Shown: positions 3,529 through 30,599 of the stretch, in pieces
Numbering within the stretch: the first letter of the stretch is position 1
Layout: each line of letters begins with the position of its first letter
Assembly: GCA_963781915.1 (NCBI GenBank)
Contig: CAWAIH010000016.1
Coordinates: forward strand, 1-32,000
Length of the DNA: 32,000 nucleotides
Reading direction: 5' to 3'
From: an uncultured Nitrospiraceae bacterium
GTDB lineage: Bacteria; Nitrospirota; Nitrospiria; Nitrospirales; Nitrospiraceae
Position numbers and translations under genes: made by a program
The notes under the pieces: generated by a model
What the model was told of the DNA's origin: nothing
Database searches by the model: none
What the model saw: the letters and a program-made list of their open reading frames with translations, nothing else

Positions 3529-3601
3529 GTGCATACTCCCCGTTTGTAAAAACACATCCCTACGCTCTTGAGTAAACTTATCGCTTAGCGAACAGCGCGC
3601 A

Positions 3602-3631: not shown

Positions 3632-3763
3632 GTGGGCTTGTGCAATAAATCGGGTGGCTTACTGCAATAAACAGAGCGCCCTAACGATACGTGACGGATC
3701 AGCGGCAGGAGTTATTGCAGCATGCGAGGCAATGGAAGAGAGCGGCATGTGGGCTTCTCGGCG

Positions 3764-8398: not shown

Positions 8399-8406
8399 GT
8401 AGGCTC

Positions 8407-8874: not shown

Positions 8875-8889
8875 CGTCTTCGATTCCTC

Positions 8890-9806: not shown

Positions 9807-9815
9807 AATGATCTC

Positions 9816-12159: not shown

Positions 12160-12219
12160 AAAACCGGGCGCTCCGGCAAGCGAGCATATATTCAACATTC
12201 GAGAGGGAGGATACTGACA

Positions 12220-12801: not shown

Positions 12802-12900
12802 GCGGACAGCCTTCCGTCCAAAGCGCGGGCGCGACTCTGGCTCAACGAGGAAATTGAGCTGTCTAAAATAGATATGGATAGAATAATGAGGATACTGACG

Positions 12901-13488
12901 ATGTCTTTGCAATTTCTGAAACCGGTGGTCATGTGTTTCTTGATGCTGGCGCTCGGAGGCCCACTCTCCGCTCAGGCCCAGCACTTTCACGAATTGGATA
13001 AAAACTTTTGCATACTTAAATTCGGACCCTACGGCATGCACCTTACCGAATATCAGCCCGACATCTCAGATCGGCAGGAGCTCTGCGGGGATATTCCGTC
13101 GACCGGACGCACGGTAGTGGTGCTCGATTTTATCGAAGGAGAACTCCGCTCGTTACCCGTCGAGGTCAGGGTCATCAAGGATACGGGTTCGGAGCAGGAT
13201 CTTCAGGCCCTCACAATCGTTCACCTGCCGGCCAAAATCTACACGGGGGGGTTCATCAATTTCGAACATAGCTTCAACCAGCCCGGCAAATTCATCGGTA
13301 TCATCACCGTTGGCGGCAAGGAAGAACATGTCGCGCGATTCCCGATTTCAGTAGGAGAATCGGGAGTAGCTTCACACTTCATGCACTACATCATGGTCAT
13401 AGTCCCACTCGCAGTGATTGCCGTTGGAGCAGCGATCTTCTTTTTTCTGCGCGGACGTCGAAAATCCTCGCTTAGCACCGTTTCGTAG
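12901..13488 (+). CDS. amoD: AmoD (PmoD-family)-like exported, C-terminally anchored protein, paralog 3
   Basis: The start at 12901 is chosen because GAGGATACTGACgATG matches the amoD start context GAGGATACTGACaATG, and the N-termini then align (MSLQFLKPVVMCFLMLALGG vs MVVQWLRPIGLCVLMLAIGM). Core CILKFGPYGMHLTEYQPDISDRQELCGDIPSTGRTVVVLD. C-terminal TM present. Confidence 0.7.
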   Translation: MSLQFLKPVVMCFLMLALGGPLSAQAQHFHELDKNFCILKFGPYGMHLTEYQPDISDRQELCGDIPSTGRTVVVLDFIEGELRSLPVEVRVIKDTGSEQDLQALTIVHLPAKIYTGGFINFEHSFNQPGKFIGIITVGGKEEHVARFPISVGESGVASHFMHYIMVIVPLAVIAVGAAIFFFLRGRRKSSLSTVS

Positions 13489-13542: not shown

Positions 13543-13947
13543 ATGGAATCACGGGTAGCTTATGTACTCAAGCTCGTCATGGCAGTCGTGGTAATGGCGA
13601 CGATGACGTACCTGCATGTCGACCCGGCGCTGGCGCATTCGATGCTGGTCAAGGCAGAGCCACCGCGCCGGGCTGTCCTCGCCAAGACACCGGCACAGGT
13701 GCGACTCTGGTTCAACGAAGAACTCGAAGGCGAGTACGCGTCGCTTATTGTGCTCGACGCTGAGAAGCATCCCGTTACCGAGATCAAGCCACAGCTTGCT
13801 CCGAATGACCCAAAGTCTATCGTCCTGCCGTTGCCGGAGTTGACGCCCGGAAAGTATTCAGTGAAGTTTCGAGTCCTGTCGGTAGACGGTCATGTGGTGG
13901 AGTCGTCTTTCGACTTCACTGTAAAGGGCAAAGTACAAAAGAAATGA
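13543..13947 (+). CDS. copC: Periplasmic copper-binding protein CopC
   Basis: SD AAAGGAGG. The signal peptide ends ALA/HSM, giving a mature N-terminal His. The family-typical D-x-H occurs near the C-terminus (SVDGHVV). There is no Met-rich Cu(I) loop. ATGA overlap with copD. Confidence 0.9.
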   Translation: MESRVAYVLKLVMAVVVMATMTYLHVDPALAHSMLVKAEPPRRAVLAKTPAQVRLWFNEELEGEYASLIVLDAEKHPVTEIKPQLAPNDPKSIVLPLPELTPGKYSVKFRVLSVDGHVVESSFDFTVKGKVQKK

Positions 13948-15965
13948 TCGAGATCATCGGCGCGCTGCTCCGCTGGCTGCAGCTTGCGTCCAACATGATC
14001 CTGATTGGCAGCTGCATTTTTCTTGCGATTGCCGTGCGCTCAAAAACGGCACTCGACGCCCCTTGGCTAGCCCGTCTGGCGCGGGTTCTACCGTGGATTT
14101 CTATCACGCTTCTGCTGGGATTGCTGGGCTTGCTGGCCACGACTACCGCGCAGGCCACGGGCATGGCTGAAAATGCTTGGCGCCCGGGAGCCTGGCTAGA
14201 ACTTTTACAAAAAACCCGCATAGGACTCATCTGGACAGTGCGTGCGGCCCTTGCGTTTCTCGTGTTCGGAATAGCTCTCTACATTCGCTTCTCCCCTTGG
14301 GCGCGCTGGCGGTATATGCTGTGCGCTACCGTTGCCGCGCTCACGCTGGCTATGGGGTCACTCGCTAGCCACTCTGCAGCCGGAGAGCTGTCCGTGATAT
14401 CGGTGCTGCCATATGCGCTGCATATCGTTTTGGCGAGCGTCTGGCTCGGAGGGCTGCCGGCCGTTCTCTCAATAATGTTCGCCACCACCGGGAAACGATC
14501 ACACGAGGAAGTGGATCGGTTCGACATCCAGACCCTAAAGCGCTTCTCTGCACTAGCACTTCCCGTGATGGTCGCTGTCGTGGCAACCGGCACCATCGTT
14601 GCGTATGACATGGTGGACACGAGCTATGCCGCATTGGTCGCAACGAGCTGGGGCTGGTTTCTCGATACAAAGATTGCACTGCTTGGAGTGATTCTCGTGC
14701 TTGCCGCGTGCGCGCGCCATATCTGGATTCCGTCACTCGACAAGAACGCGGAAGTAGCTGCAGCCGGCGGACGTGGACTTCGAAAGTGGGTCACCGTCGA
14801 ATTCGTGATCGCGTTGGCGATGGTGCTGGTCGCGACAATGCTGGCTAACGCCGTTCCGGCGAAACATGCCGTCATTGAGGACTGGCCCTATCCATTCCGC
14901 TTCTCCATCGACGCCACCTGGGGCGGGCTGGGCATGATGATCGGCGCGGGGATAGGAGTCGCGTTGCTTATCCTGGCAGTTGGAGCGATTGCCCTCGGTC
15001 GGTCCAAGCGCTGGGAGACGAAGTGGCGCATTGCCATCCCGACTGTACTGGCGGTCTGTGCGCTGGTTGCGGCGCTGCCTCCCCTTGCCACTCAGGCTTT
15101 TCCGGAAACCTACCGCAAGACGCCGGTCCCGTTCGATGCCATTTCCGTTGCCAACGGTGCGACCATATTTGCCGCGAATTGCGTACTCTGCCACGGACCT
15201 CAAGCCAAGGGCAATGGAGTTCTAGCCAAGACCTTTCCTATACCACCGGTGGATCTACTTACGGAACCGCACACCGCCAAGCATACGGCAGGGGACTTTT
15301 TCCACTGGCTGACCCACGGTATACCCGGTACTGGCATGCCGGCGTTTGCCGACAAACTCTCGGAAGAGGATCGCTGGGATGTCGTAAACTTTCTCCATGC
15401 CACATCCCGCGGCTATCAGGCGCGCCTCATCAACCCCTATGTCGCCCCCAATCAACCCTATATGGCCCCGCAGAATTTCTCTTATTCCGCGCATGACGAT
15501 TCGAGCGGCACCTTGAAAGACTTTCGTCGACAGAAAGCAGTTCTGCTGGTTCTATTTTCCTGGCCGGAGTCGCGCGCAAGGCTGGATCAGTTGCGGTCGG
15601 CTTATGCCACACTAAGCGCCGCCAATACATTGATATTGGCAGCATCAGTGAATGATCTCAACCCGGAAGATCTGGCGGCGATCACGGCAGGCATGACTTT
15701 CCCTGTTGCGACGCAGGGGGCATCGGAGATCACGCGCAGCTACGCCCTGTTCCGTAGAACCCTCAGCAACCCTGATTTGGCCGGCGAGGGAACAATGCCG
15801 AAACACATGGAGTTCCTGATTGACCGTTATGGCTATTTGCGGGCGCGATGGATTCCTGCGGTGGATGGGACTGGGTGGACAGACATCGGGGAACTGATGC
15901 GGCAAGTCGAACAACTCAACCGGGAAAAAGAACTCCGTCCGCCACCAGACGACCATGTGCACTGA
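13944..15965 (+). CDS. copD: CopD-family membrane protein fused to a c-type cytochrome domain and a C-terminal Cys-less redoxin/thioredoxin-like domain
   Basis: The N-terminal ~300 aa is polytopic and CopD-like, directly coupled to copC, and is followed by two further TM helices. A class I cytochrome c domain follows: CVLCH at codons 413-417 (nt 15180..15194), with a distal GTGMPAF Met. The C-terminal ~150 aa resembles an AhpC/TSA-type fold (KAVLLVLFSWPES...HMEFLIDRYGYLRARW) but has no cysteine at the active-site position. Confidence 0.85.
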   Translation: MIEIIGALLRWLQLASNMILIGSCIFLAIAVRSKTALDAPWLARLARVLPWISITLLLGLLGLLATTTAQATGMAENAWRPGAWLELLQKTRIGLIWTVRAALAFLVFGIALYIRFSPWARWRYMLCATVAALTLAMGSLASHSAAGELSVISVLPYALHIVLASVWLGGLPAVLSIMFATTGKRSHEEVDRFDIQTLKRFSALALPVMVAVVATGTIVAYDMVDTSYAALVATSWGWFLDTKIALLGVILVLAACARHIWIPSLDKNAEVAAAGGRGLRKWVTVEFVIALAMVLVATMLANAVPAKHAVIEDWPYPFRFSIDATWGGLGMMIGAGIGVALLILAVGAIALGRSKRWETKWRIAIPTVLAVCALVAALPPLATQAFPETYRKTPVPFDAISVANGATIFAANCVLCHGPQAKGNGVLAKTFPIPPVDLLTEPHTAKHTAGDFFHWLTHGIPGTGMPAFADKLSEEDRWDVVNFLHATSRGYQARLINPYVAPNQPYMAPQNFSYSAHDDSSGTLKDFRRQKAVLLVLFSWPESRARLDQLRSAYATLSAANTLILAASVNDLNPEDLAAITAGMTFPVATQGASEITRSYALFRRTLSNPDLAGEGTMPKHMEFLIDRYGYLRARWIPAVDGTGWTDIGELMRQVEQLNREKELRPPPDDHVH

Positions 15966-16079: not shown

Positions 16080-17081
16080 TATGCACTTGACTCCAGTACG
16101 CTTGAGGCATAGCCTAGTCAAACTGTTGGAGGGCATAGATCATGCGGACCCTTGCCGAGTTCGAACAACGGTTCGCCACAGAAGGTGCATGCCGCGCCTA
16201 TCTGGCTCGGCTGCGGTGGCCGACCGGATTCTGTTGCCCCCAGTGTAAAACCAGCGGCAGCTGGACAACCACACGATGTCTCATGATGTGCCGCCGATGT
16301 GGATACCAAGCCTCGGTCACGGCGGGGACAATCTTCCATCGAACCCGCCTCCCTTTGCAAGACTTGTTTCGAGCGATATGGTGGATGACCGATCAGAAGC
16401 ATAAGATCAGCGCCTTGGGGCTACAGCGCCTACTGGGCCTTGGCAGTTACAGGACAGCGTGGCTGTGGCTGCAAAAGCTGCGACGCGCAATGGTGCGGCC
16501 TGGCTGGGACCTGCTGGGGGGCCAGGTGGAAGTAAACAAAACATATATAGGGGGCGGCGAATCGGGAGGAGGCCGTCGACACCTGGGAAATAAGATCGTG
16601 GTGGCGATCGCTGCACAGGTTGATGGGAAAGGGATCGGACGCGTCCATCTGCGTCGAATTCCAGCTGATGCCGCAAGTCCGCTTATGGCCTTTGTAAAAC
16701 AAGCAGTTAAGCCTGGGTCCGTGATCATCACGGACGGATGGGAAGCCTATGCCGGGTTGACACAGGAGGGCTTCAAACACCGACCATACGTGATTAACGC
16801 CAGCAATAAAACAGCGCCGGTCTTGTTGCCCCGTGTGCATCGAGTGGCCTCCATGTTCACGCGCTGGCTATTAGGTACCCACCAGGGTACCTTGTCCCGC
16901 GAGCAACTGGACTTCTATCTCGGCGAGTTCACCTCTCGCTTCAACCATCGAACATCGAGATATCGCTGGAAGCTGTTCTCCAGACTTGTGGCGCAAGCTG
17001 TCTCGGCTGAGCCAGCCCCCTTCTCCAGGCTGGCCACAGATATCGGCTAAACACGGCAGGATAACTGGAGCTAAGTGCATA
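16080..17081 (+). mobile_element. IS1595-family insertion sequence, apparently intact
   Basis: Imperfect terminal inverted repeats: TATGCACTTGACTCCAGT at 16080..16097, and the reverse complement of 17064..17081 (TATGCACTTAGCTCCAGT), matching at 16 of 18 positions. They bracket a single transposase ORF. Element length is about 1 kb. I found no flanking direct repeat. Confidence 0.8.
16142..17050 (+). CDS. IS1595-family (ISXO2-like) DDE transposase
   Basis: N-terminal zinc-ribbon pattern CPQC...CRRC inside FEQRFATEGACRAYLARLRWPTGFCCPQCK, which is typical of IS1595 transposases. The DDE-type body follows (ITDGWEAY...). 302 aa. Confidence 0.9.
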   Translation: MRTLAEFEQRFATEGACRAYLARLRWPTGFCCPQCKTSGSWTTTRCLMMCRRCGYQASVTAGTIFHRTRLPLQDLFRAIWWMTDQKHKISALGLQRLLGLGSYRTAWLWLQKLRRAMVRPGWDLLGGQVEVNKTYIGGGESGGGRRHLGNKIVVAIAAQVDGKGIGRVHLRRIPADAASPLMAFVKQAVKPGSVIITDGWEAYAGLTQEGFKHRPYVINASNKTAPVLLPRVHRVASMFTRWLLGTHQGTLSREQLDFYLGEFTSRFNHRTSRYRWKLFSRLVAQAVSAEPAPFSRLATDIG

Positions 17082-17200: not shown

Positions 17201-17256
17201 CCGGAGTTTTTTCTCCGGAATAAGCGGTGGGTCTCATTCAGTTTCACTGGGTCTCA
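17201..17256 (+). promoter_or_regulatory. Structured amoC 5' leader: hairpin plus direct repeats
   Basis: Perfect hairpin CCGGAG-TTTTTT-CTCCGG (17201..17218), flanked by TAAGCGG on both sides. It is followed by TGGGTCTCA at 17228..17236 and again at 17248..17256 (20-nt period), immediately before the SD AAGGAGG. Confidence 0.3.
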
Positions 17257-17280
17257 ATACTTAAACAAGGAGGTCAGGGT

Positions 17281-18078
17281 ATGGCGAGTACAACGTTCGG
17301 AGGGAGCGACAGAGGGTACGACATGTCGCTCTGGTACGATTCCAAACCGCTCAAGATTGGCTGGTTTGCCATGCTGGCGGCGGTGGGATCTGAGGTCGTG
17401 TTTCAACGCGTCTTTGGGTATTCCCACGGCTTGGACTCCATGACCCCGGAGTTCGAGAATGTCTGGATGGGCCTGTGGCGCTTTAACGTGATCTCCAACA
17501 TCATCTTCTCGGCGGCGACGCTGGGCTGGATTTGGAGCACGCGCGATCGCAACGTGGCCAACGTGGATCCCAAGACGGAACTCAAGCGGTACTTCTATTG
17601 GATGATGTGGCTCGCCATTTACGTGTTCGGCGTCTATTGGGCCGGCTCGTATACCCTGGAGCAGGATGCCTCGTGGCATCAGGTGATCATCCGCGACACC
17701 AGCTTCACCGCCAGCCATATCATTGCCTTCTACTTCACGTTCCCGCTCTACATTACGTGCGGCGTCGCGAGCTACCTCTACGCCATGACCCGGTTGCCGC
17801 AGTTCAGCAAGGCGGTCTCCTTCCCGTTGGTGGGCGCCATCGTGGGGCCGATGATGATTCTCCCGAACGTGGGCCTCAACGAGTGGGGCCATGCCTTCTG
17901 GTTTGTCGATGAACTGTTCGCGGCGCCGTTGCACTGGGGCTTTGTGACCCTGGGCTGGTGCGGATTGTTCGGCGGCACGGGCGGCGTGGCGGCGCAGATC
18001 GTCGCGCGCATGTCCAACCTGTGCGATGTGGTTTGGAACAACGAGAGCAAGGCTTGTTTGCATGTGATCCCGTACTAA
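17281..18078 (+). CDS. amoC: Ammonia monooxygenase subunit C
   Basis: 265-aa polytopic membrane protein with AmoC/PmoC-typical sequence ([16 protein letters not shown]...[22 protein letters not shown]). The ATG at 17281 has AAGGAGG 7 nt upstream. First gene of amoCAB. Confidence 0.95.
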
Positions 18079-18198
18079 ATCGTACTGGTGGTGTTACTGG
18101 GCTGACCGCGCGCTCCGGATTCCGAAGAGCGAGGTTGCCCATAGACTAGCTGGAACAAGGGAGAGAACAGATGTTTCGAATGAGTGAGGAGGAGACAA

Positions 18199-19092
18199 AT
18201 GGCACTGTTTAGAACAGCAGAGATTATAAAAGCCAGCAAGCTGCCGCCGGAAGGCGTCAAACTGTCACGGATGATCGACGCGGTGTACTTCCTTCCGATT
18301 GCATATCTAGGAGTATTCGCGACCTTTCATATGCACTTCGACCTGCTTGCAGGAGACTGGGATTTCTGGATCGATTGGAAGGATCGGCAGTTCTGGGTAA
18401 CGGTAACTCCTATTGTGGAGGTTATGTATCCAGGGGCGATCATGTACTACTTCTGGACGTTCTACCGGCAACCCTTTGGTGCAACGTTAAGCATCACGGG
18501 GCTCCTTGTTGGAAAGTGGATTACGGTCGTGTTGGCGTGGTACTGGTGGGCAAATTTCCCGGTAAACTTCGTCATGCCTGCCACCATGGTCTCCAGCGCA
18601 TTAATCCTGGACTGCACCCTGTTGCTGACCAGGAGTTGGATGTTGACAGCGATATTCGGCGTATGGGCATTTGCGATGATGTTCTATCCTACGCAATACG
18701 CCCTGTTCGGATACAGCAAGCAACCGATGGTCGTGGATGGTCAGCTGCTTTCCTTGGCCGACTACATGGGCTTCACCTATGTCCGGACGGGAACGCCTGA
18801 GTATATCCGCATCATCGAAGTCGGTTCGTTGCGTACATTCGGCGGACACACCGTGTGGATCTCCGCATTTTTCTCAGCGTTTGTCTCCATGTTGGTCTAC
18901 ACCATTTGGTGGCAAATCGGGCACTTCGTCGGCCAATCATTCTTTTGGGTCAAGGGCAAACGTGGAGTGATGTCACGGAAAAATGATATCATGATCGTCG
19001 GCACGGATGAGTATGCCGCGAGACTTGGCACACCGGATGGGGTTGCACCAAGACTGACAGCGGCAGCCACACTTGCGGAAGGGAAATCATGA
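18199..19092 (+). CDS. amoA: Ammonia monooxygenase subunit A
   Basis: Hallmark AmoA sequence (HMHFDLLAGDWDFWIDWKDRQFW...YRQPFGATL...YVRTGTPEYIRIIEVGSLRTFGGHT). The ATG at 18199 is preceded by GAGGAGGAG. ATGA overlap with amoB. Confidence 0.95.
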   Translation: MALFRTAEIIKASKLPPEGVKLSRMIDAVYFLPIAYLGVFATFHMHFDLLAGDWDFWIDWKDRQFWVTVTPIVEVMYPGAIMYYFWTFYRQPFGATLSITGLLVGKWITVVLAWYWWANFPVNFVMPATMVSSALILDCTLLLTRSWMLTAIFGVWAFAMMFYPTQYALFGYSKQPMVVDGQLLSLADYMGFTYVRTGTPEYIRIIEVGSLRTFGGHTVWISAFFSAFVSMLVYTIWWQIGHFVGQSFFWVKGKRGVMSRKNDIMIVGTDEYAARLGTPDGVAPRLTAAATLAEGKS

Positions 19093-20351
19093 ACGCAAAA
19101 AACATATTTAAATTGTGCGTGATCGGTTCCCTTGGGATGGCAACGCTGGGGCTCACCCTGGTGTTCAATGCCACTCCCGCAGCCGCCCACGGTGAGCGTT
19201 CTCAAGAACCGTTCCTGCGGATGCGTACCGCGCAGTGGTATGACACAAAGTGGAATCCTCAGAAGACCGCAGTTAACGATGAAGCAATGCTGTCCGGCAA
19301 GATTCATATCGCGGAAGACTGGCCACGAGCCGTGGTCAAGCCGAACCGTACCTTCATCAACGTGGGCAGCCCGAGTTCGGTGTTCACGCGTCTCAGTTCA
19401 AAAGTCAACGGAACTCCAATGTTCACATCGGGCCCGATGGAGCTCGGTGGGGACTACGAGTACGTGATCAAGTTGAGAGGCCGGTTGCCTGGCCATCACC
19501 ACATCCACCCAATGTTGGCCGTCAACGGGGCCGGCCCTGTTGCAGGACCAGGGGGATGGATGGATATCACGGGCAACTATAAAGACTTCACCAACCCTGC
19601 AAAGCTGTTGGTTGGTGGGACTATCGATACGGAGACTGCAGGCATGGCAGCCGGAATCTTCTGGCATGTCCTCTGGGGTGGTCTCGGCTTCGCATGGATC
19701 GGCTGGTTCATGATCAGACCGATGTTCTTGATTCGCGCCAGAGTGTTGGCTCAAGAGGGTGGCGACGCACTGCTGAACGACCCGGTCGACCGAGTGGTGG
19801 CATGGGGAGTTTTAGGAGTGACCTTTACTTTGATCGCGATTGGTTTCTACTCTACGGACCACTCGTACCCTTACACCGTACCTCTCCAGGCCGGTGAACC
19901 AAAGATCAAGGCAACGCATTTGAAGTCTGACCTCACAATGAAGGTACTCGCAGCTGACTACGATGTTCCTGGTCGTGCCCTGCGTATGACGCTCCAGGTC
20001 ACGAACAGCGGTGAGACGCCTCTCAGAATCGGTGAGTTCACGACAGCAGGCATCCGGTTCCTCAACAAGGTAGGTGTGGCCAACAACCTGGATCCAACCT
20101 ATCCGGCAGAGATCATGGCTCAAGATGGTTTGCATATGGAAGATGAGTCACCGATCATGCCAGGGGAAACCAAAGAAGTGAAGCTTGACTCCAGAGACTC
20201 GCTCTGGGAAGTCCAGCGGTTGATGGACATGGTCAACGATCCGGAGCAACGCTTCGGTGGCTTGGTGATGTCTTGGGACGAATCAGGCAATCGTCACATC
20301 AACAGCATCGCTGGCGCCATCATCCCGGTCTTTACAAGGGCTGCTGGCTGA
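19089..20351 (+). CDS. amoB: Ammonia monooxygenase subunit B
   Basis: The signal peptide ends AAA/HGERS, giving a mature N-terminal His. A GHHHIHPM histidine cluster, two TM helices in the middle and a C-terminal cupredoxin-like domain are present. 420 aa. Confidence 0.95.
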   Translation: MNAKNIFKLCVIGSLGMATLGLTLVFNATPAAAHGERSQEPFLRMRTAQWYDTKWNPQKTAVNDEAMLSGKIHIAEDWPRAVVKPNRTFINVGSPSSVFTRLSSKVNGTPMFTSGPMELGGDYEYVIKLRGRLPGHHHIHPMLAVNGAGPVAGPGGWMDITGNYKDFTNPAKLLVGGTIDTETAGMAAGIFWHVLWGGLGFAWIGWFMIRPMFLIRARVLAQEGGDALLNDPVDRVVAWGVLGVTFTLIAIGFYSTDHSYPYTVPLQAGEPKIKATHLKSDLTMKVLAADYDVPGRALRMTLQVTNSGETPLRIGEFTTAGIRFLNKVGVANNLDPTYPAEIMAQDGLHMEDESPIMPGETKEVKLDSRDSLWEVQRLMDMVNDPEQRFGGLVMSWDESGNRHINSIAGAIIPVFTRAAG

Positions 20352-20851: not shown

Positions 20852-22780
20852 TTAGCCCTTTACCAACTGAACATCTGGAGATGACGGCAACCAAATGCTC
20901 ACGACAGTGCCTTCTCCGACCGCGCTCGTCACATGGATATATCCATGATGCCGGTCGATAATGTTCTTGCAGATCGCCATCCCTAATCCGGTTCCGTTAC
21001 GTTTCCCAGACGTAAAAAATGGCTCGAATACGCGAGACAGCGCCTCTGGCGGGATGCCTTTACCGGCATCTCGGACTTGTATCATGATACCGGTTTGTTC
21101 CTGGTGGAGTAACTTATACGCCGCGATTTCCATGGACAAACCGTACTTAGGAGAGGCATCTATCGCGTTGTCGATAACGTTCAAGAGCACTTGTTCGAGT
21201 TGGTCTCGATCGGCATAAAGATGGTCCGCTGCCTGAGATATGGAAGTTCGGACTTTGAGATGTTTAGCCTCCAGAGGCCCGGTCAGCAACTTGAGGACAC
21301 GGTTGATGAGGTCGGACAACACAAATTGAACCAGTGTAAGCTCGCGAGTCCTCGCATATTCCACAATCTGATTCACGATCCGATCCATTCGTTTGGCCTC
21401 GTGGAGAATCATGTCGATCTCCTCACGCCTTGGATCGGACCGTTCGAACTCATCCAATAACAGCGATGCCGTCGAGCCGATCCCGACCAAGGGATTCCTG
21501 AGCTCATGGGCAATGCCGGCCGCCATCTGTCCCAATGTCGCCAGCTTCTCGGTTCGGCTTAATCGTGATTGCAGAGTATTGAGTGCCGTAATGTCGATAT
21601 TGAATGCCACATAGATCGGATCGGGGCTGTCGAACCCCGATATCGGCACGCGACGGCTCAAAATCGTCAACACGCCGCCGTCGGCATGAACAAACCGGAA
21701 GATCAGTTCGCACTGGCGGCCCGCTGCGACGGCCTGTGAAAATTCCGACAAAACACGATCAAGATCTTCAGGATGAATTCGAGCACGGAAGGCGGCGGGA
21801 TCACCCTGTTCGTCAGGATCGAGCCCGGCCAAGACTTGATTATGTCGGTTGCTGAACGTGACCTGCATCCCCTTCGTCATAAAGATGCCGATCGGAGCGT
21901 TATCCACCAGACCGCGGTACTTCGATTCAGACTCTGATAAATGCTGGTTGAGTGTCCGGAGCGAGGCCTCAGACTTTACCACTTGATCGAACTGTTCCTG
22001 AACCTGCCGACTCATCTCTTGCATCACCCTGGTGAGGCCTCCGATCTCATCTTTCCGATCCAACACAAGGATGGTAGGACAAAGCCCGCCGGATGACTCG
22101 GCAACAGCCTTTGACAGGTTGACAAGAGGGACCGCAATCGATCGGGCAATCAGATAGAGCGCAGAGACGATAAGCCCAAACGTGAATAGCCCCCCGCCTA
22201 AAATGGCAAGAAGTGTCGACGTGCGGTCTAGGTTCATTTGCGCGAACTCATCCAGCGCGCTTTTCTCCTCGAATGTATCGAGTTTTTCCATCCAAGTCCG
22301 AAGATCAGACATCAGCGCCCTTCCTCGCCCTTCCCTGATATACTGAAGCGCGACCGATTTTCGGCCCGATTGAATATCTTTGATGAGGCCTTCCTTCTCT
22401 TCGATGATTCGGTTCACGAGGGCTTCAGCGTCCTTAAAATGCTGCTGATGGTCTTCTGAAAGTCTCGCGTTTAGATCCTTCCCGACCCCGCGAATGTTTT
22501 CGAGCGCCTCTTGATAGGGTTTGAGATCGCGAACATCTTCGGTCAACACATACCCTCGAAAACCGGTCTCCAAATCGACCGCCAGCCGCATGTATTGGGC
22601 TGCAGCCTTTTCGGCAAGATAGAGATTGTTCAACCGCTCTTCATCCTGCGAAAAGGTTTGCAGATTGATGTAGGTCACGATGCTGACGAGGATGAGGGAG
22701 GCGAGAGGGATCGTGGAGATGAACAGTAACTTGTGATGAATTGGAACATTATTGAACAGGCTGGCAATATGCTTGTACAT
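20852..22780 (-). CDS. Sensor histidine kinase with CHASE3-like periplasmic domain, HAMP, PAS, HisKA and HATPase_c
   Basis: TM1, then a CHASE3-like segment (ETGFRGYVLTEDVRDLKPYQEA), TM2 and HAMP, then a PAS region (YRGLVDNAPIGIFM). H-box AAGIAHELRNPL, N-box LLNVIDNAIDA, G-boxes VRDAGKGI and GTGLGMAICKNI. The ATG at 22780 (GGAG 5 nt upstream) is preferred over the GTG at 22825. Confidence 0.9.
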   Translation of the reverse strand: MYKHIASLFNNVPIHHKLLFISTIPLASLILVSIVTYINLQTFSQDEERLNNLYLAEKAAAQYMRLAVDLETGFRGYVLTEDVRDLKPYQEALENIRGVGKDLNARLSEDHQQHFKDAEALVNRIIEEKEGLIKDIQSGRKSVALQYIREGRGRALMSDLRTWMEKLDTFEEKSALDEFAQMNLDRTSTLLAILGGGLFTFGLIVSALYLIARSIAVPLVNLSKAVAESSGGLCPTILVLDRKDEIGGLTRVMQEMSRQVQEQFDQVVKSEASLRTLNQHLSESESKYRGLVDNAPIGIFMTKGMQVTFSNRHNQVLAGLDPDEQGDPAAFRARIHPEDLDRVLSEFSQAVAAGRQCELIFRFVHADGGVLTILSRRVPISGFDSPDPIYVAFNIDITALNTLQSRLSRTEKLATLGQMAAGIAHELRNPLVGIGSTASLLLDEFERSDPRREEIDMILHEAKRMDRIVNQIVEYARTRELTLVQFVLSDLINRVLKLLTGPLEAKHLKVRTSISQAADHLYADRDQLEQVLLNVIDNAIDASPKYGLSMEIAAYKLLHQEQTGIMIQVRDAGKGIPPEALSRVFEPFFTSGKRNGTGLGMAICKNIIDRHHGYIHVTSAVGEGTVVSIWLPSSPDVQLVKG

Positions 22781-23088
22781 GGAGTCTCCGTCGCACTCTT
22801 GTGAGTGCCTAGGATTTAGATCCACCCATTGTCAAACATCTCTCCGCTATACCGTGACATCCTCACCATGAGAATTATCGTGTCAGGGCGAAAGTCATGG
22901 GAAAGCGAAAGTCTGACTGTTCAGTGATAGAAAGCCACACGGAGGCATCCCTAAAATGGGCAATATACTGCGGAGGTGCCAGTATGGCTCCGCGTTCATA
23001 CCAGACATGACCATGCTATAGCTTTGCGAGAAATGCCGGGAACTTGCACGACGGCCGACCAATCCCTAGTGATCGGATTTAGCCTTGG

Positions 23089-23553: not shown

Positions 23554-25335
23554 TCATGCAAAGGCCGTGAGGTTACCGGGAGTTTGACTGATACGATAGG
23601 CTAGCGCGTGATCTGATAGCCCGCGGAAATGCTCCATCCCGACGAGGACACAGGTATGCCCGGCTTCAATGGCTCGATCTTGGAACCCGTGCAAGTATTC
23701 CATGGTGGTATGGTCCACGATCTTTCCCGCCAAAATGAGCATATAGTTGGCTTTCATGCCTTCGGGAATCACGATGGCTTTGAGCGCCGCGTCGAGTTTC
23801 ACCAGGTTCATGCAGGTGGCCGAAGACAGGTAGATCTTGTAGGGATTCTTCATCGCTCCGACGGTGCCACGGAGCACCGCGTTTGCCGAGACGGTCATCA
23901 CACTGCGAGAGCCGCTGCCGGTGTCTCCAATGCGGATGACGGGATTGCGGAACAGTTCTTTGAATGCGGCCCCTATCCCCCTACCCTCGGGATCCTTGGC
24001 TGAAGCCTTGACGACATCCTTCACAAGCAAGGCGATCTTCGTCAGTGTGCCGACAATCATGCCGTCCAGTATGTCTGAGGTGGCCAACGTGACCACGACA
24101 TTGACCATGGCGACAAATATCTGTTCCTTGCCGACCGAAAAGATCCGCTTGAAGACTTTGTTCGAGCAGAGCTTCCATCCGATCCACATGAGCAACCCTG
24201 CCAGGGCCGATTTTGGGATTTGATTGATGAGGGCTGCGGCGAACAACAGGATGATCAATTGAAAGCAGGCATAGTAGAAGTTGGCCCAGAGGGTACGGCC
24301 CCCTGCAAGCATGTTGACCGTACTTTTCAGCCCACCGGGAATGATCGTCAATCCACCCAGTAGACTGGATGCGGTGTTGGAGACCCCCATGGCTCGCAAG
24401 GTGACATTGGGATTCGACTTTCGTTTAAACGGGTCGATCTTATCGATGGCGGCGATCGTCGCGAGCGACTCGGTGCCGTCGATGAGGGTCAGGGTGATAA
24501 TGATGAGTATGAGAGACCCGTATAGTTCCGGTCTGGAAAAGGCTTCAACGAAATGGGGAAATACGATGCCATGTTCAAAAATATCGAGGGGTACATGAAT
24601 GAGCTATTTTTCCTCAAGACCCAGGATCCAAGAGGCCAGACCGGCTAGAACGATCACGACGAGGGGCACAGGGACGAGCTTCGGCCACGTGCCTTTGATA
24701 CGGGCAAGGATGCCGCTAATAAAAAAGAGGAGGAAGAGGGTGGCGGCTCCAATGACGCAGATCAACGGATTCATGCCCATGATCTGTTCGGGAATCAGCA
24801 TGATGGCTTTGGGAATGGATTTGATGGGTGGCGTGATGTACCCGAGAAATGCCGGGACTTGTTTGACGATGATCAGCATGCCGATCGCCATCAACATGCC
24901 TTCGACTACCGAGATGGGGAAAAATAGCGCGAACCGCCCGGCATTGAAGACGCTGAGAATCACCTGCACAACACCGACTATCGCAATGGCCACCAGTAAG
25001 AGCGGATAACCCGCCTCCAAGTCTCCATGACCCAATGCGAGCGTACCGGCCAACAGCGCCGGCGCCAGACCGGCGGCCGGGCCGCTGATCGTGATATAGG
25101 CGCCACCGAGAAAGGGAAAGACAAATCCCGCGATGATCGCCGAGATGATACCGCAGACCGGAGGCGCACCGGAGGCAATCGCGATCCCGAGCGAGAGCGG
25201 GATCCCCATCATGGCGACTTGCAGTCCCGCCATCAGGTCGTATTGCCAATGCTTCAGACCCTTTATCCCATTTTCCGGTTTTTCTCCTGCCGGAATATCG
25301 TCTTCTGTTGCTGTTGCCGCTCCATGCGATGACAT
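23554..25335 (-). pseudogene. SulP-family anion transporter with C-terminal STAS domain, interrupted by one in-frame TAG
   Basis: ORFs 24604..25335 and 23554..24399 are in the same frame. The minus strand translates continuously as ...SWILGLEEK-TAG-LIHVPLDIFEHGIVFPHF...TLTLIDGTESLATIAAIDKIDPFKRKSNPNVTLRAMGVSNTASSLLGG.... That is an uninterrupted SulP core with a single amber codon at 24604..24606. Confidence 0.85.
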
Positions 25336-26112
25336 GCTGGTCCTCCTGAATTTCAGGTTGCCCTGTTATGCTGTAAAGCTATACGCGCTTGTATTTTCAC
25401 GACTTAGACGGTGCTTCATAGTTCCGCTCCTGCTGGAAGTCCCAATGGTTCTACGCAGACTCAGTGTCAGTTGAGGGCCTCGCGCTAGGCGCACACAATG
25501 AATAGGCGTTGATTGGAAAATGCTTTAAAATGCGTGATGTTACAGAACTCTATTGACCGGAGTCAAGCGTCAAGATGGAAGACAATCAGGAGCTCGCTGC
25601 TTGTCAAAATAAAAGAGGGAGAGGCAATGTCTCTCCCTATCCTAGACTGCATCAGTTCGTCACACTCTTCAGAGCCGTGACGCCTGACCGCTACAGACTT
25701 TTGAACCGCTGTGCTCTGAGAATAAAGCGTATCGTCGGCTACGGACTACTTCAGGCCCTGCTCCGCTAACCCATTCTCGAATGAAAACTCCAACGTATCG
25801 CCCTTCTTCCCAGGCTTGGTGTAAAACTCGCTCTGCACGACAGAGTACTCTTTCTCTACGTTAGGAAGCCAGCCGACCGGCTCAACTAAGCTCCCGCTGA
25901 CCTACTTTCCGGGTTTTGGGTCACAGGCTCATTTGGGACTAACAAAGGGCTTGACTCTTAACCGGACACTACGATATCACACCAGCGAATTTGGCTGTGT
26001 TATTCTTTTCCTCACACACAGACGAAGTGCCAGTGAGACCTTCACATAGAAAAGACCAGTTGCACATTTGCCTGGAGAAGTTCGCCCAACCATTTCAGAG
26101 AGGAGTTCAACC

Positions 26113-27060
26113 ATGATGAAAAGACAATCACCTCAACTGATAGCCATCGCAGGGGCCATGGTCCTTGCGATGGCCGGATTGATGGGATTGCCCTGCGAGG
26201 CATCCGCGAAGACCCATGACGTCAAGATGACGGCGCTCGAAACGGAAATCGTGATTGAAGGAACGGGAACGAAATATAAGGCCTGGACGTTCAACGGCCA
26301 GATGCCGGGGCCGGCCGTGCGGGTCACGGAAGGCGACACTGTCAACTTCACGCTGGAGAATCCCAAGACCAATGTTTATCCACATGCCATGGACTTCCAT
26401 GCGGCGGAAATCGATTTCCTGAAGAACTACCGGGCCATCAATCCGGGAGAAACCATTTCCTTCACCTTTGTGGCGAAGAAGCCCGGCGTGTTTTTCTATC
26501 ATTGCGGCGCAGCGCCCATGATCCAGCACGTCGCGCGCGGCATGTTCGGCGCGATTATCGTCGATCCCAAGAATCCGAAGGTCTGGCCGAAAGCGGACCG
26601 GGAGTTTTTGTTAGTCCAATCTGAGCTCTGGAAAAACCCCGACGATGTCGAGGCCATGTTCGCCCGGAAGTTCGACTATACGGTCTTCAACGGAGGGATC
26701 TTCAAGTATCATCCCTTCTTCATCGGCTCGGAAGCGCTGGAGGCGAAACCGAATGAGCGGGTCCGGATCTATTTTGTGAACGCGGGCCCCAACGAGTTTT
26801 CCTCGCTCCACCCGATCGGCGAGATTTGGGATAACGTCTACGAGAGCGGGAACCCTGCCAACAAACTCACAGGGGTGCAAACCTATGTCGTGGGACCAGG
26901 AAGCGCCGCCACATTCGACTTGGTCTCCGAATCACCCGGGGTCTATCCGATTGTGACGCATTCGCTCACTGGAGCCCTTCGTGGAGCCATTGCCGCGCTG
27001 ACGATTACACCGGTAGCCAAGAATGCTCCGCTGATGCCACTGACGCCCTGGAATCCCTAA
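26113..27060 (+). CDS. nirK: Copper-containing nitrite reductase (NirK-type two-domain multicopper protein)
   Basis: All NirK ligand motifs are present: HAMDFHAA (T1 His, catalytic Asp, T2 His), FYHCGAAPMIQHVARGM (T2 His-T1 Cys...His...Met), SSLHPIGEIWD (catalytic His) and IVTHSL (T2 His). Signal peptide. AGGAG lies 7 nt upstream of the ATG at 26113. Confidence 0.9.
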   Translation: MMKRQSPQLIAIAGAMVLAMAGLMGLPCEASAKTHDVKMTALETEIVIEGTGTKYKAWTFNGQMPGPAVRVTEGDTVNFTLENPKTNVYPHAMDFHAAEIDFLKNYRAINPGETISFTFVAKKPGVFFYHCGAAPMIQHVARGMFGAIIVDPKNPKVWPKADREFLLVQSELWKNPDDVEAMFARKFDYTVFNGGIFKYHPFFIGSEALEAKPNERVRIYFVNAGPNEFSSLHPIGEIWDNVYESGNPANKLTGVQTYVVGPGSAATFDLVSESPGVYPIVTHSLTGALRGAIAALTITPVAKNAPLMPLTPWNP

Positions 27061-27133
27061 ACGACCAGAAATATGATAGAACTGTGCATTCGAAGGAAGC
27101 CCTCATTTACCTCTCAAAAAAGGAGCGCCTTTC

Positions 27134-27580
27134 ATGAAACAACTTTCTCGCGCCATCAAGACTATGCTGACCGTCGCCGTACTGTTGATCTCAGCGCCGG
27201 TGTGGGCAGCCGATGCTCCGTTGCCCTCACTCTATGAACGGCTCGGCGGAACAGGCCCTATCACGGCCGTCGTCGGCAAGTTCGTCAGCATCGTGGGCCA
27301 AGACAAGCGCATCAACGGGTGGTTTGCCAAAGCCGATCTGCCGAAACTGAAGAAACAGCTGGTCGACCAGGTCTGCCAAGCCAGCGGCGGCCCCTGCACC
27401 TATGATGGGCCAGACATGAAAAAAACACATGCCGGCATGAAAATCACGACGGCTGCCTTCAATGCCCTGGTTGAAGACCTCGTCAAGGCATTGGATACGT
27501 TCAACGTGCCAGCCAGAGAAAAGAACGAACTCCTTTCCGTGCTGGGTCCTATGAAGTCCGACATCGTCGAAGTGCCGTAA
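27134..27580 (+). CDS. Group I truncated hemoglobin (trHbN-like) carrying an N-terminal Sec-type signal peptide
   Basis: LYERLGGTGPITAVVGKFVSIV...GGPCTYDGPDMKKTHAGMKITTAAFNALVEDL matches the 2-on-2 globin pattern, including the proximal His (KTHAGM). The N-terminus MKQLSRAIKTMLTVAVLLISAPVWA/AD looks like a cleavable signal peptide. SD AAAAGGAG. Confidence 0.85.
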   Translation: MKQLSRAIKTMLTVAVLLISAPVWAADAPLPSLYERLGGTGPITAVVGKFVSIVGQDKRINGWFAKADLPKLKKQLVDQVCQASGGPCTYDGPDMKKTHAGMKITTAAFNALVEDLVKALDTFNVPAREKNELLSVLGPMKSDIVEVP

Positions 27581-27588
27581 AGGGCAAC

Positions 27589-27619
27589 GGGCAGGCGGTG
27601 AGATCCTCGCCGCCTGCCC
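27589..27619 (+). terminator. Perfect 10-bp GC-rich hairpin after the globin gene (possible terminator, no U-tract)
   Basis: GGGCAGGCGG (27589..27598), an 11-nt loop, then CCGCCTGCCC (27610..27619), beginning 9 nt after the stop. No T-run follows it. Confidence 0.35.
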
Positions 27620-27860
27620 ATGAACGCATCCAAGAGAAGAACACTGCACCCCAGCCGAACCGAAGCTTCGCATAGTCCGACAAATCGATGAACCTACCCA
27701 AGGGCTTCAGATCGCATCCCTGCAGACAGGTATTCCGATGACGCGAACAGCTCATCGCAGATATGCAAACCGGACGCAGACGCCCTGTGCGAAAAGCGTA
27801 CCCGTAACCGGCCCACAGCCTCATGGAGACAGCAAGGCCAAGCTCAGGCACAACTGTCTG

Positions 27861-28202
27861 ATGCTTGCGATGGCGCTCACCGTGGGTCTTGGAGTATTTC
27901 AGCCGGCCAGAGCCAGCCAGGCTGCCATGGAGAGAGTTCCCGTCGCGCTGACAGGATCTGGTTGCGACAGCCATGAGAACGAGCTAAGCAGGGCGTTGCT
28001 CACCTTGCAGGGTGTGAACGCCGCGCATTTTCATCGCATACCCGATCACGTCTTGGTGGATATCACCGTCGGCATGATCGTGCCGGAAGAACTGGTTCGT
28101 CATCTCAATACGGCGGCCACGTCATGGCAATGCCGCGCTGAAATTATGCAGTCCTGCATCACGGCAGCCCCTGTCCCCCAGACTCGAAAAGACGCACCAT
28201 AA
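27861..28202 (+). CDS. Hypothetical small exported protein with an HMA-like (ferredoxin-fold) pattern and a degenerate metal loop
   Basis: From the ATG at 27861: MLAMALTVGLGVFQPARA/SQ signal-like N-terminus. Then VPVALTGSGCDSHENELSRALLTLQGVNAAHFHRIPDHVLVDITVGMIVPEELVRHLN, whose spacing resembles beta-alpha-beta-beta-alpha-beta HMA domains, with GSGCDSHE in place of GMxCxxC. There is no convincing SD and the start is uncertain. Confidence 0.35.
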   Translation: MLAMALTVGLGVFQPARASQAAMERVPVALTGSGCDSHENELSRALLTLQGVNAAHFHRIPDHVLVDITVGMIVPEELVRHLNTAATSWQCRAEIMQSCITAAPVPQTRKDAP

Positions 28203-28394: not shown

Positions 28395-30261
28395 TTATTT
28401 TGTGATGTGTTTCGCAGCTTCGACAATCGATCGCGCCCCGATGCCGAAGTGGTCGATGAGTTCGTCCGGCTTCCCGCTGTGGGGGATCGTGCGAACCGCA
28501 AGCTTATGTACTTTAATACCTTCTGGTCCAACTGCGCTGAGCACCGCATCTCCAAGGCCACCGTGCGCATAATGATCTTCAACGGTGAGAATACGCCCCT
28601 GCGTAGCCCTCGCGCTGTCAATCAACGTCGTGTGATCGATAGGGACGACACTATAGAGATCGACGATCCGCACGGCAGATGCCGGCGGCTTTCAATGTGT
28701 CGTATGCCTTCAGGGCTTCGAAGAGCGTGACGCCGGCTGCGACGATCGTGAGGACATCCGCTGCACTTTGGCGAATTACCTTCGACCCGCCGATCTGGAA
28801 CCTTTCATCGGGCCCATAGAGAACCGGACACTTCGGACGCCCGGCCCGAATGTAGACCATTCCTTTATGTGCGGCAGCCATTTCGACGAGCCGGTACGTG
28901 CAGGTCGCATCGGACGGATACAACACGGTGACGCCCGGCTGCGCAGCCATCATTGCGATATCTTCCAGACCCATTTGTGAGGGGCCGTCTTCCCCGATGC
29001 TCACGCCGACATGTGTACCGACAAGCTTGATGTTCGAGCCGCTGATGGCAGCCATACGGATGAAATCGTAGGCTCGCGTAAAGAATGCGGCAAACGTGGC
29101 AACAAACGGAATCTTCCCGCAGGCAGCTAAACCGGCTGCGGCCCCGAGCATATTTTGTTCCGCGATAAAATTTTCAAAGAATCGATTGGGAAATCTCTTG
29201 CCGAACTTATCGGTATAGGTCGAGTTCTTTACGTCGGCATCGAGTCCCACGACCAGCGGATTCACCGCACCCAACGCCTCAAATGCGTTACCGAATGCTT
29301 CGCGCGTGGCGGCAGTGTCGCCTATTTTATAGGGCGAAGGCGGGAGAGGACTGGTAGACGACGGCCCCTGAACCGGCGTCGATGGTTTCTTCACTGAAAT
29401 GGTTGCACTGCTGGGTTTCAGCTGCTTGGTCAACTCATCGATCGCCTTCTGCGTTTCTTCGCCTTTGGCGGCCGGCTTTCCATGCCAGGCAGGATGATTC
29501 TCCATGAAGGAGATGCCCTTGCCCTTGAACGTTTTAGCGAGTAACACCGTCGGCTTGCCTTTGGTGCCGGCAGCGGTATCGAATGCCGCGAGCAAAGCTG
29601 AAAGATTATGCCCATCAACCACTAGCGCCTGCCAGCCAAAGCCGGCCCATCGGGAACGATAGGCCTCCATGTCATGTTGCAGCATGGTCGGATCGCTTTG
29701 ACCGAGTCGATTGACATCGACAATGGCACAGAGGTTATCCAACCCATGATGGCGCGCGACTTCAGCCGCTTCCCATACGGATCCCTCAACGGATTCTCCA
29801 TCGCCCATCAAGACGTAGGTTCTGTGATCGAGCTTGTCGACATATTTCGCATTGAGGGCGATTCCAATACCCACTGGCAACCCTTGCCCCAACGAACCCG
29901 TTGCCATATCGACAAACGACAAACGAGGCGTCGGGTGGCCTTCAAGATCGGACGTCAATGTTCGAAGTTTGAGAAGTTCGCTCTTGGGAAAGAGACCTGC
30001 TTCCGCCCAAGCGGCATACAGCAGTGGGGCAGCATGGCCTTTTGACAGCACGAACCGATCGCTATTGTACGCTTTGGGATTTTTAGGGTCGTATCGCATC
30101 ACGGAGAAGAAGAGGGCTGCGACAATGTCCGCAGCGGAACAGCAACTGGATGGATGTCCGCTCCCCGCTTCGCTCGTTGCACGAACGCTCTCGATCCGGA
30201 GCTGTGTGGCCTTGTTCTGCAGTTCAGTAAGCAATTCTGGTGAAGCGGTTGAGCTAGCCAT
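28395..30261 (-). pseudogene. tkt: Transketolase (single-polypeptide type) disrupted by a 1-nt frameshift near the C-terminal domain
   Basis: TPP motif GDGESVEGSVWEAAEVARHHGLDNLCAIVDVN. The N-terminus has SGHPSSCCSAADI and SKGHAAP. The main frame ends ...LKAAGICRADRRSL*, while the next frame continues (S)AVRIVDLYSVVPIDHTTLIDSARATQGRILTVEDHYAHGGLGDAV...HSGKPDELIDHFGI, the normal transketolase C-terminus. The frame switch must lie between 28654 and 28692, most simply one extra base near 28677. The ATG at 30261 has AAAGGAG upstream. Confidence 0.85.
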
Positions 30262-30599
30262 CGGAACTCCTTTCGGGATTGGATGCCAAGGATACTGCCT
30301 GACTCTTCTTGTCTTCTCTATCGGCAGCAACAGGACGGAGCTTGAGGCTAGCAAAATGAAATGGGGAGAGTCAATCAACCTAAACAATACAGGGAAGATG
30401 GGGAGCCAGATGTCGATACCAAGTAGGCGGCTAATGGAAGTGGTTTCATGAGATTATGATATGTGCGGGACAATGGCAGTGGGCGCTGGTAAAGGGCAAG
30501 CACGGGATGAAGCACTGCATCGAGACGGGATGTCACATGGGCTCTCCTTGGAAGAGGACCATCAAGCACATTATGTATCGGTGAGAGCGAAGCGTTGCA

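Follow-up and report, generated by a model that had tools for sequence, protein, structure and literature searches.

We analyzed a 32,000-nucleotide (nt) stretch of DNA from an uncultured Nitrospiraceae bacterium (contig CAWAIH010000016.1; the whole stretch is called the window here) and found that its nirK gene is followed on the same strand by two further genes for exported proteins, one for a group I truncated hemoglobin and one, named ORF3 here, for a small protein of divergent HMA (heavy-metal-associated) fold. Together, the three products can be read as a Sec-exported copper nitrite reductase (NirK), a periplasmic globin that binds nitric oxide (NO), and a NirK-associated candidate copper chaperone, a combined reading for and against which we hold the evidence to be evenly balanced. 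It is carried by the identities of the proteins, by export signals on all three products, by the fold of ORF3, by purifying selection, and by gene order in relatives, where nirK is linked to the globin gene and, separately, to ORF3, with strong conservation in each case. An earlier reading of the same DNA from its letters alone (the sequence-only reading) had described three same-strand genes with signal-peptide-like N termini; the three open reading frames (ORFs) do lie on the forward strand where it had placed them, and our signal checks agree, with a reservation for ORF3 that is given below.

Signal peptides were judged by heuristic checks (basic n-region, hydrophobic h-region, and a small-x-small site or lipobox), not with SignalP, and n-, h-, and c-regions were all present in NirK and the globin. 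Across homologues, the export feature is kept despite differing sequences, and lipobox variants occur. NirK matched the NCBIfam model TIGR02376, which is tuned to classical denitrifier NirK, with an E value of 1.7e-62 and a score of 211.7 bits, below the curated cutoff of 296.3. Its closest solved relative is the NirK of Nitrosomonas europaea (PDB 4KNS; E value of 7.5e-101). In the alignment to this structure, the type 1 (T1) copper ligands (His91, Cys131, His139, and Met144), the type 2 (T2) copper ligands (His96, His130, and His283), and the catalytic Asp94 and His233 are all present, so that the residue set by which we recognize a NirK (T1 His-Cys-His-Met, T2 His-His-His, and catalytic Asp and His) is complete, as had been claimed for the T1 and T2 ligands. 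The mature N. europaea enzyme starts opposite residue 33 (KTHDV), so that the first 32 residues (codons 1 to 32, positions 26113 to 26208; MMKRQ...EASA, with cleavage between EASA and KTHDV) look like a Sec signal peptide that is removed. The mature NirK has a ratio of nonsynonymous to synonymous changes (pN/pS) of 0.28.

The gap between the nirK stop and the globin start is exactly 73 nt, and a scan of this gap found no terminator-like site. The globin matched Pfam PF01152 (Bac_globin) with an E value of 5e-16 (59.4 bits against a cutoff of 21), and its residues 32 to 145 align without gaps to residues 14 to 127 of Mycobacterium tuberculosis HbN. The alignment gives His99 as the proximal histidine (F8) and Phe64 at CD1; with Gly-Gly motifs at 38-39 and 85-86, every feature by which we assign group I (Pfam match, His F8, Phe CD1, and Gly-Gly) is present, and the NCBI name of the homologues is likewise "group 1 truncated hemoglobin." The sequence-only reading, which had placed a group I truncated hemoglobin 73 nt downstream of nirK, was thus correct in both respects. 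The distal pocket is apolar (Val51 at B10, Leu72 at E7, Leu76 at E11, Val80 at E15, and Leu112 at G8), with aliphatic residues in place of both Tyr B10 and Gln E11 of HbN, and the best PDB matches are HbN B10/E11 mutants. Hydrophobic residues at B10, E7, E11, and G8, all found in the window globin, characterize TrHbN-2, a "little-studied" subgroup of which low O2 affinity is expected and whose first member to be studied, Shewanella benthica HbN, reacts with peroxides (PMC11904497). The pN/pS of the globin domain is 0.39.

Conservation of the globin was assessed over its 120 closest homologues. His F8 is invariant among them, position B10 holds Val, Ile, or Leu without exception, position E11 holds Leu or Ile, and Cys81 (E16) and Cys88 (EF loop) are kept in 120 of 120. 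All 120 carry a signal peptide or a lipobox, so that every full-length homologue is tagged for export; in the window, the signal peptide comprises codons 1 to 25 (positions 27134 to 27208), ending ...VWA before AD. The sequence of the export signal is wholly different between subclades, and a subset of homologues carries a lipobox (..VGC, ..SGC, or ..TGC) and then a linker, which marks them as lipoproteins; a twin-arginine motif is absent from most of the exported homologues inspected. The export signal and the cysteine pair are also found in relatives from Thiobacillus, Myxococcales, Pyrinomonadaceae, Gemmatimonadota, and others, and distant relatives without a signal peptide have no cysteine pair. 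Two kinds of export signal on one globin domain, the fast evolution of these signals, and the confinement of the cysteine pair to export-tagged forms are strong, if indirect, evidence that the globin is exported. The apo-globin would then pass through Sec and acquire heme b outside the cytoplasm, and a Cys81-Cys88 disulfide probably staples it.

The replacement of Tyr and Gln by Val B10 and Leu E11 suggests that NO binding or buffering fits this protein better than NO dioxygenation of the HbN type, which depends on a hydrogen-bonding network (Tyr B10 with Gln E11 or E7) that the window globin does not have. Of the earlier proposal that the globin captures, buffers, or oxidizes NO, binding and buffering are consistent with the apolar pocket, and oxidation by a Tyr-B10/Gln-E11 type of NO dioxygenase is not. 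The globin might still act catalytically in the periplasm, as an NO dioxygenase or NO oxidase whose oxy-ferrous heme turns NO into nitrate and whose ferric heme is re-reduced by a periplasmic c-type cytochrome, so that NO from NirK would be consumed and not just held: the organism is aerobic, NO dioxygenases are known among group I truncated hemoglobins (M. tuberculosis HbN, for example), and in another Nitrospira lineage (loci L059 to L064, e.g., L059, 5709 to 7780, and including the complete genome CP060499.1), nirK and the globin gene are followed by genes for an exported monoheme cytochrome c (152 amino acids [aa]) and then a sigma-54 activator. The cytochrome c gene of this alternative layout hints that heme re-reduction, and with it catalytic turnover, is possible. 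The window's own cluster, however, has no cytochrome c gene, and the O2-stabilizing residues of HbN are replaced by aliphatic ones in every homologue; on balance, we consider a catalytic globin possible but unlikely. The sigma-54 activator of the cytochrome c lineage has no recognized sensor domain in its first ∼130 residues and may be a dedicated regulator of that cluster.

The start of ORF3 had to be set anew. The mechanically listed third ORF, on which the sequence-only reading relied, spans positions 27738 to 28202 (154 aa), and database gene calls for relatives range from 109 to 221 aa (mostly 113, 154, 176, or 205 aa). Compared over 18 close relatives, codons 1 to 41 of the 154-aa frame show a pN/pS of 0.93 and no third-position excess (526/449/358 changes at the three codon positions); mature ORF3 has a pN/pS of 0.42 and a clear third-position excess (574/450/876). 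Indels upstream of the ORF3 start in relatives are not multiples of three, distant relatives start just before the hydrophobic segment, and in L050, a close relative, an upstream ATG is absent altogether. The neutral evolution of the 41 codons, the non-triplet indels, and the starts of the relatives together place the start at position 27861 and give a 113-aa protein that begins with MLAMALTVGLGVFQPARA and continues, after the cleavage site, with SQAAMERVP...; the signal peptide comprises codons 1 to 18 (...PARA before SQ). On the same grounds, the 154-aa ORF and the database calls of 176 to 205 aa were rejected as real proteins. That ORF3 itself is spurious was also rejected, given its pN/pS, its third-position excess, and a family of 203 clusters, and its pN/pS of 0.42, against 0.39 for the globin and 0.28 for NirK, marks it as a selected gene.

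An exhaustive profile search returned 203 representatives of ORF3-family clusters (defined at 50% identity) at E values of ≤1e-3, of which 73 were below 1e-10. Retrieved members are 99 to 158 aa long, with a hydrophobic segment resembling a signal peptide at the N terminus of nearly all of them. When a profile of two Nitrospira subgroups (32 to 36% identical) was compared with the PDB, 29 of 30 matches were HMA domains, with the GxxCxxH of ORF3 on their GMTCxxC loop, and a 55-member family profile matched ATP7B (5.8e-17), CopA (5.7e-9), the single-domain structure 2l3m (3.3e-6), CopZ (4.8e-4), and MerP (6.8e-4). Individually, 14 of the 55 members matched PF00403 at E values of up to 1 (best, 1.7e-5). 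AlphaFold2, given a deeper alignment, predicted a beta-alpha-beta-beta-alpha-beta topology with a predicted local distance difference test score (pLDDT) of 95 to 97 in the core, and the top 50 PDB matches of this model in Foldseek were all HMA domains, with template modeling (TM) scores of up to 0.87 (0.80 to 0.87 for MerP and ATP7B domains; MerP, 0.84; ATP7B, 0.87). By profile and by predicted structure, then, ORF3 is a divergent HMA-fold protein of a family that has no Pfam model. Invariant or nearly so in the family are Arg25, Gly32, Cys35, His63 and Asp67 (PDHxLVD), Cys91, and Met96-x-Ser98-Cys99-Ile100, with Cys91 and Cys99 within QCRAEIMQSCITA. Loops 1, 3, and 5 share one end of an HMA domain, and judging from this topology, the three residues Cys35, His63, and Cys91 could converge into a Cys2His site. 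Of the small HMA-like ORF with a Cys/His loop that had been described from the sequence, the HMA fold and the standing as a real, selected gene are borne out; the 154-aa start is not, and the His of the loop is not conserved. One metagenome-assembled Nitrospira genome carries two ORF3-family paralogues (P0248 and P0249; HP491_13425 and HP491_13450) separated by five locus-tag steps on a single contig of 80 kb.

Gene order was followed in two scans. A globin-seeded scan of species-representative genomes yielded 58 loci, and in all 30 informative Nitrospira loci with the nirK-type globin, nirK lies directly upstream. ORF3 follows downstream in the window's clade (L001 to L022) and in a second clade (L024, L025, L027, L028, L032, and L033), in which it is only 33 to 37% identical; at three further nirK-globin loci (L034 to L036), tblastn detected no ORF3. 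An ORF3-seeded metagenome scan yielded 74 loci, 58 of them informative, and nirK was found upstream in 51 of the 51 that reach far enough to show it: 30 have nirK-globin-ORF3 and 21 have nirK-ORF3 without a globin, the NirK of the latter being 67 to 82% identical to the window's. At 7 loci, the contig breaks off beyond the globin and short of where nirK would appear, 16 are too short to tell, and none had enough upstream DNA and no nirK. Distant ORF3 relatives (P0257, P0259, and P0260) also stand directly downstream of nirK, and several contigs with distant relatives are too short for their full context to be read. Within this NirK clade, ORF3 is therefore a more widespread partner than the globin, which looks like an insertion between nirK and ORF3. 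The earlier expectation of a conserved gene order thus holds well beyond chance in Nitrospira but not as a fixed triplet, given the 21 of 51 loci without a globin and the lineage in which cytochrome c replaces ORF3. Two loci appear to be natural deletions: in Nitrospira sp. CG24C (L050, 5179 to 6605), NirK ends at residue 240 and globin residues 108 to 148 remain, and in RSF48 (L052, 6001 to 6741), nirK is gone and globin residues 109 to 148 remain. From L052 and from a locus with a transketolase gene and then ORF3 (L070), we also considered ORF3 as a mere syntenic bystander of transketolase; this was rejected as the main explanation, nirK being upstream at 51 of 51 loci, 21 of them without a globin.

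Elsewhere, the nirK-globin pair is flanked differently, with transketolase or queG upstream, and no amo or hao gene was found within the few kilobases of flanking DNA covered there. The pair hence does not depend on the amo island, and a link to ammonia oxidation, which the sequence-only reading had suggested, is conjectural.

Several observations weigh against the combined reading, and some of them favor other roles for its members. With respect to the globin, 21 loci have nirK and ORF3 but do without it, and deletions have removed most of it in L050 and L052, so that it is dispensable to the nirK/ORF3 pair; a stoichiometric NO trap alone cannot clear a sustained NO flux; and exported TrHbN-2 globins outside Nitrospira have heterogeneous neighbors, with nirK not adjacent. 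The globin might accordingly have nothing to do with NirK and serve as an envelope O2 buffer or carrier or as a scavenger of peroxide or other reactive species, its place beside nirK being a lineage-specific accident of synteny. TrHbN-2 proteins have been proposed as suited to O2 transport or storage, and the sole member studied reacts with peroxides (PMC11904497). Three exported homologues, from Thiobacillus, Pyrinomonadaceae, and Gemmatimonadales (L037, 937 to 3110; L041, 4432 to 5601; and L043, 6694 to 7869), adjoin anti-sigma-factor genes and none adjoins nirK, which hints at a link to an envelope-stress regulon; the neighbors were identified by Pfam in L041 (ChrR-type cupin) and L043 (RskA), and an extracytoplasmic function (ECF) sigma factor and a cupin protein in L037 were read from translations only. 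Nitrospira itself has a lipoprotein-type paralogue (L023, L026, L029 to L031, L065, and L066; 157 to 162 aa, with a lipobox and a Pro/Ala/Lys-rich linker) that lies downstream of genes for a sensor kinase and a sigma-54 response regulator and does not adjoin nirK. However, nirK and the nirK-type globin gene are on the same strand with gaps of ∼45 to 120 nt at the loci checked, down to a NirK identity of ∼71%, the adjacency holds in at least three different flanking contexts, and the globin gene has a strong Shine-Dalgarno sequence of its own with no terminator-like site after nirK. We therefore consider a globin unconnected with NirK improbable.

With respect to ORF3, the points that weigh against the combined reading concern both the protein and its gene. 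The window ORF3 has no Pfam match (HMA included) and no NCBIfam match. In its counterpart of the GMxCxxC motif, the invariant first cysteine (Cys35) stands alone and the second is missing, its position being taken by a His in the window and varying across the family. The signal peptide has the hydrophobic and AxA parts and lacks a basic n-region. Between the hairpin and the ORF3 start lie ∼240 nt of noncoding DNA, a clear Shine-Dalgarno sequence is absent before ORF3 as well as before its relatives in other layouts, and the conserved hairpin together with the noncoding spacer makes cotranscription with the globin gene doubtful. ORF3 is absent from the nirK-globin-cytochrome c lineage, is intact in both deletion loci (in L052, it survives the loss of nirK), and occurs without a nearby nirK in L070, in an unrelated context in L067 and L068, beside cytochrome c and beta-propeller genes in L148, and in L149, where, as in L150, it follows a gene that, judged from its translation, appears to encode a trypsin-like periplasmic serine protease. 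Instead of acting as a copper chaperone, ORF3 might bind a different metal, serve as a thiol-disulfide or redox partner, or support NirK in a structural or regulatory capacity, its three cysteines being put to another use, for example as a Cys91-Cys99 disulfide and a free thiol. The loss of the canonical CxxC, the nonconserved His of CxxH, three invariant cysteines in an oxidizing compartment, and the family members beside protease or cytochrome c and beta-propeller genes would suit such roles; yet almost all sequence and fold matches are metal-binding HMA domains, Cys35 aligns with their first metal-binding Cys, and the recurrent partner is a copper enzyme that would be exported unfolded, so that a role other than copper delivery seems to us rather unlikely. 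For the dedicated metallochaperone that had been proposed, the HMA fold and the tight linkage to nirK speak in favor, and the site would have to differ, with the CxxC missing and Cys35, His63, Cys91, and Cys99 invariant instead.

The window is an ammonia-oxidation island of a complete ammonia-oxidizing (comammox) Nitrospira, and nirK lies ∼5.8 kb downstream of amoB (Table 1).

Table 1. Features of the nirK-globin-ORF3 region and of the surrounding island, with positions in the window.
Feature	Positions	Strand	Description and basis
hao-like multiheme cytochrome	1066-2790	-	
ccm cytochrome c maturation genes	3073-11224	-	
Three AmoD/E-like ORFs	11572-13488		Named from position and sequence features; none matches Pfam
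copC-like ORF	13543-13947		Tentative label
copD-cytochrome c fusion	13944-15965		
IS1595 transposase	16142-17050		
amoCAB	17227-20351		
CHASE3-PAS histidine kinase	20852-22825	-	
nirK Shine-Dalgarno GAGGAG	26100-26105	+	7 nt 5' of ATG, read from sequence
nirK	26113-27060	+	315-aa two-domain copper nitrite reductase precursor; TIGR02376, 4KNS, ligands, pN/pS 0.28
Globin Shine-Dalgarno AAGGAG	27120-27125	+	8 nt 5' of ATG, read from sequence
Globin gene	27134-27580	+	148-aa exported group I truncated hemoglobin, TrHbN-2; PF01152, HbN alignment, 120 homologues, pN/pS 0.39
14-bp G+C-rich hairpin	27589-27619	+	Directly 3' of globin stop; no U-tract; single copy in window
Noncoding spacer	27620-27860	+	Contains spurious 41-codon extension (27738-27860) of the 154-aa ORF
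ORF3	27861-28202	+	113-aa exported protein, predicted divergent HMA fold; profile-to-PDB matches, AlphaFold2, Foldseek, nirK linkage, pN/pS 0.42

The hairpin, which like its missing U-tract had been recognized in the sequence-only reading, lies in an 81-nt stretch that folds at −37.5 kcal/mol (z of −4.5 against shuffled sequences), and the outer 10 bp of its stem are unchanged in 15 of 16 relatives, L008 differing by a single base. It is a candidate terminator, attenuator, or stabilizer of an mRNA 3' end; as it occurs once in the window, we rejected it as a repeated element. Scans of the window for sigma-70 promoters and terminators gave nothing useful on the forward strand, a search for a sigma-54 promoter 5' of nirK gave nothing convincing (pattern matches were at chance level), and an Rfam search of the window found no RNA family. 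Both outer neighbors of the cluster appear to be broken. A SulP-family permease gene upstream of nirK (23554 to 25335, reverse strand) has an in-frame stop near 24601, is a single ORF of ∼600 aa in relatives (L003, L075, and L012), and is either a pseudogene or the result of a sequencing error; the transketolase gene downstream of ORF3 (28395 to 30387, reverse strand) has a frameshift near 28650 to 28680 that splits it into ORFs of 578 aa and 92 aa (649 to 659 aa in relatives). Together, the stop and the frameshift point either to errors in the assembly or to decay of genes in the vicinity of the cluster. Immediately upstream of nirK, some close relatives (L012, 4155 to 4793; L020, 2953 to 3531; also L008 and L019) have another NirK/multicopper-oxidase-like gene, which is divergent (∼34% identity) and lies on the opposite strand, and the corresponding 777 nt of the window (25336 to 26112) contain no convincing ORF.

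As a mechanism, we propose that NirK would be exported unfolded through Sec and interconvert nitrite and NO in the periplasm. The globin, exported as well (by a Sec signal peptide here and by a lipoprotein signal in some relatives) and loaded with heme b there, would have an apolar pocket without a hydrogen-bond donor, in which O2 is predicted to be held poorly and NO tightly. It could thus act as a periplasmic NO trap or buffer beside the NO-making enzyme, similar in function to cytochrome c', with turnover possible if it reacted with O2 and were re-reduced by periplasmic c-type cytochromes. An enzyme that is exported unfolded would have to receive its copper in the periplasm, and the most likely role of ORF3 would be to deliver copper to apo-NirK, perhaps by way of the putative Cys35/His63/Cys91 site. 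AniA, a NirK-type enzyme of Neisseria, needs a dedicated periplasmic copper chaperone, AccA, which belongs to the PCuAC family (PMC13006917), and ORF3 is by analogy the obvious candidate for that role here. A bolder proposal, to which we attach little probability, is that NirK and the globin, assisted by ORF3 or cytochrome c, carry out the periplasmic NO-processing step of Nitrospira. In this scheme, NO set free by NirK or hydroxylamine oxidoreductase would be caught by the globin and then either passed to NirK acting as an NO oxidase or oxidized by the globin itself via cytochrome c, which would fill the place of the proposed "missing" NO-to-nitrite/nitrate enzyme of comammox ammonia oxidation.

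NO is central to nitrifier function and to N2O/NOx emission, and periplasmic NO handling has a testable candidate in an exported globin that is tuned away from O2 and, across dozens of species, fixed beside nirK. If true, export would give a physiological context to TrHbN-2, and stand-alone globins could be exported by Sec or as lipoproteins. With its Cys/His/Cys site, the ORF3 family would represent a novel type of periplasmic HMA metallochaperone, and ORF3 itself would be the first candidate copper insertion factor for a nitrifier NirK. In a comparative genomics preprint on comammox bacteria, a group I truncated hemoglobin is listed as a nitrosative stress gene, and the passages on hemoglobin and nirK make no mention of its export or of its adjacency to nirK; comammox bacteria are described there as lacking nitrosocyanin and cytochrome P460, the usual NO-binding proteins of ammonia oxidizers (10.1101/138586). 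A literature search in which subscription journals were thinly covered turned up no account of nirK and a globin gene as a module, of TrHbN-2 globins exported as stand-alone proteins, of a Nitrospira NirK chaperone, or of the HMA-like family of ORF3. The components are of known kinds (globin, HMA protein, and NirK accessory factor), and their nirK-centered combination appears to be undescribed.

Among known systems, the NirK of N. europaea (4KNS), likewise periplasmic and from a nitrifier, has the same ligand set and mature N terminus as the window NirK. The accessory genes of its operon, ncgABC-nirK, encode a multicopper oxidase and two c-type cytochromes and lie upstream of nirK, whereas those of the window encode a globin and an HMA-fold protein and lie downstream. 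M. tuberculosis HbN aligns without gaps over 114 residues and shares the proximal His and Phe CD1 with the window globin, which differs in Val for Tyr B10, in Leu for Gln E11, and in being exported. Cytochrome c' is a periplasmic NO-binding heme protein of denitrifiers with an apolar distal pocket that favors NO over O2; its likeness to the window globin would be one of working only, the fold being unrelated and the heme being heme c and not heme b. MerP, which is also periplasmic, CopZ, and the HMA domains of P-type ATPases share with ORF3 the predicted fold and the aligned first metal-binding Cys, but ORF3 lacks the second Cys of CxxC and has in addition the invariant His63, Cys91, and Cys99 and a C-terminal SCI[ST]A tail. 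S. benthica HbN (PDB 8UGZ) has the fold, the subgroup, the hydrophobic B10, E7, E11, and G8, and a Cys at E16 in common with the window globin; it has no reported export signal, a Tyr at CD1, and no link to nirK, whereas the window's clade has signal peptides or lipoboxes, Phe CD1, and Cys81/Cys88 (PMC11904497). AccA resembles ORF3 in proposed role only and is not homologous: its motif (HXnMX21/22HXM), carried on a cupredoxin-like fold, is absent from the sequence of ORF3, which has an HMA-like fold and no Met-rich site. The sequence-only reading had regarded truncated hemoglobins as cytoplasmic and the module as uncharacterized; the latter agrees with our literature search, and the former has a precedent against it in cable bacteria, where truncated hemoglobin domains fused to multiheme cytochromes are predicted to be periplasmic (PMC11976967). 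The cable-bacterial domains are parts of fusion proteins that have been proposed to be oxygen reductases, whereas the window globin is a stand-alone protein linked to nirK.

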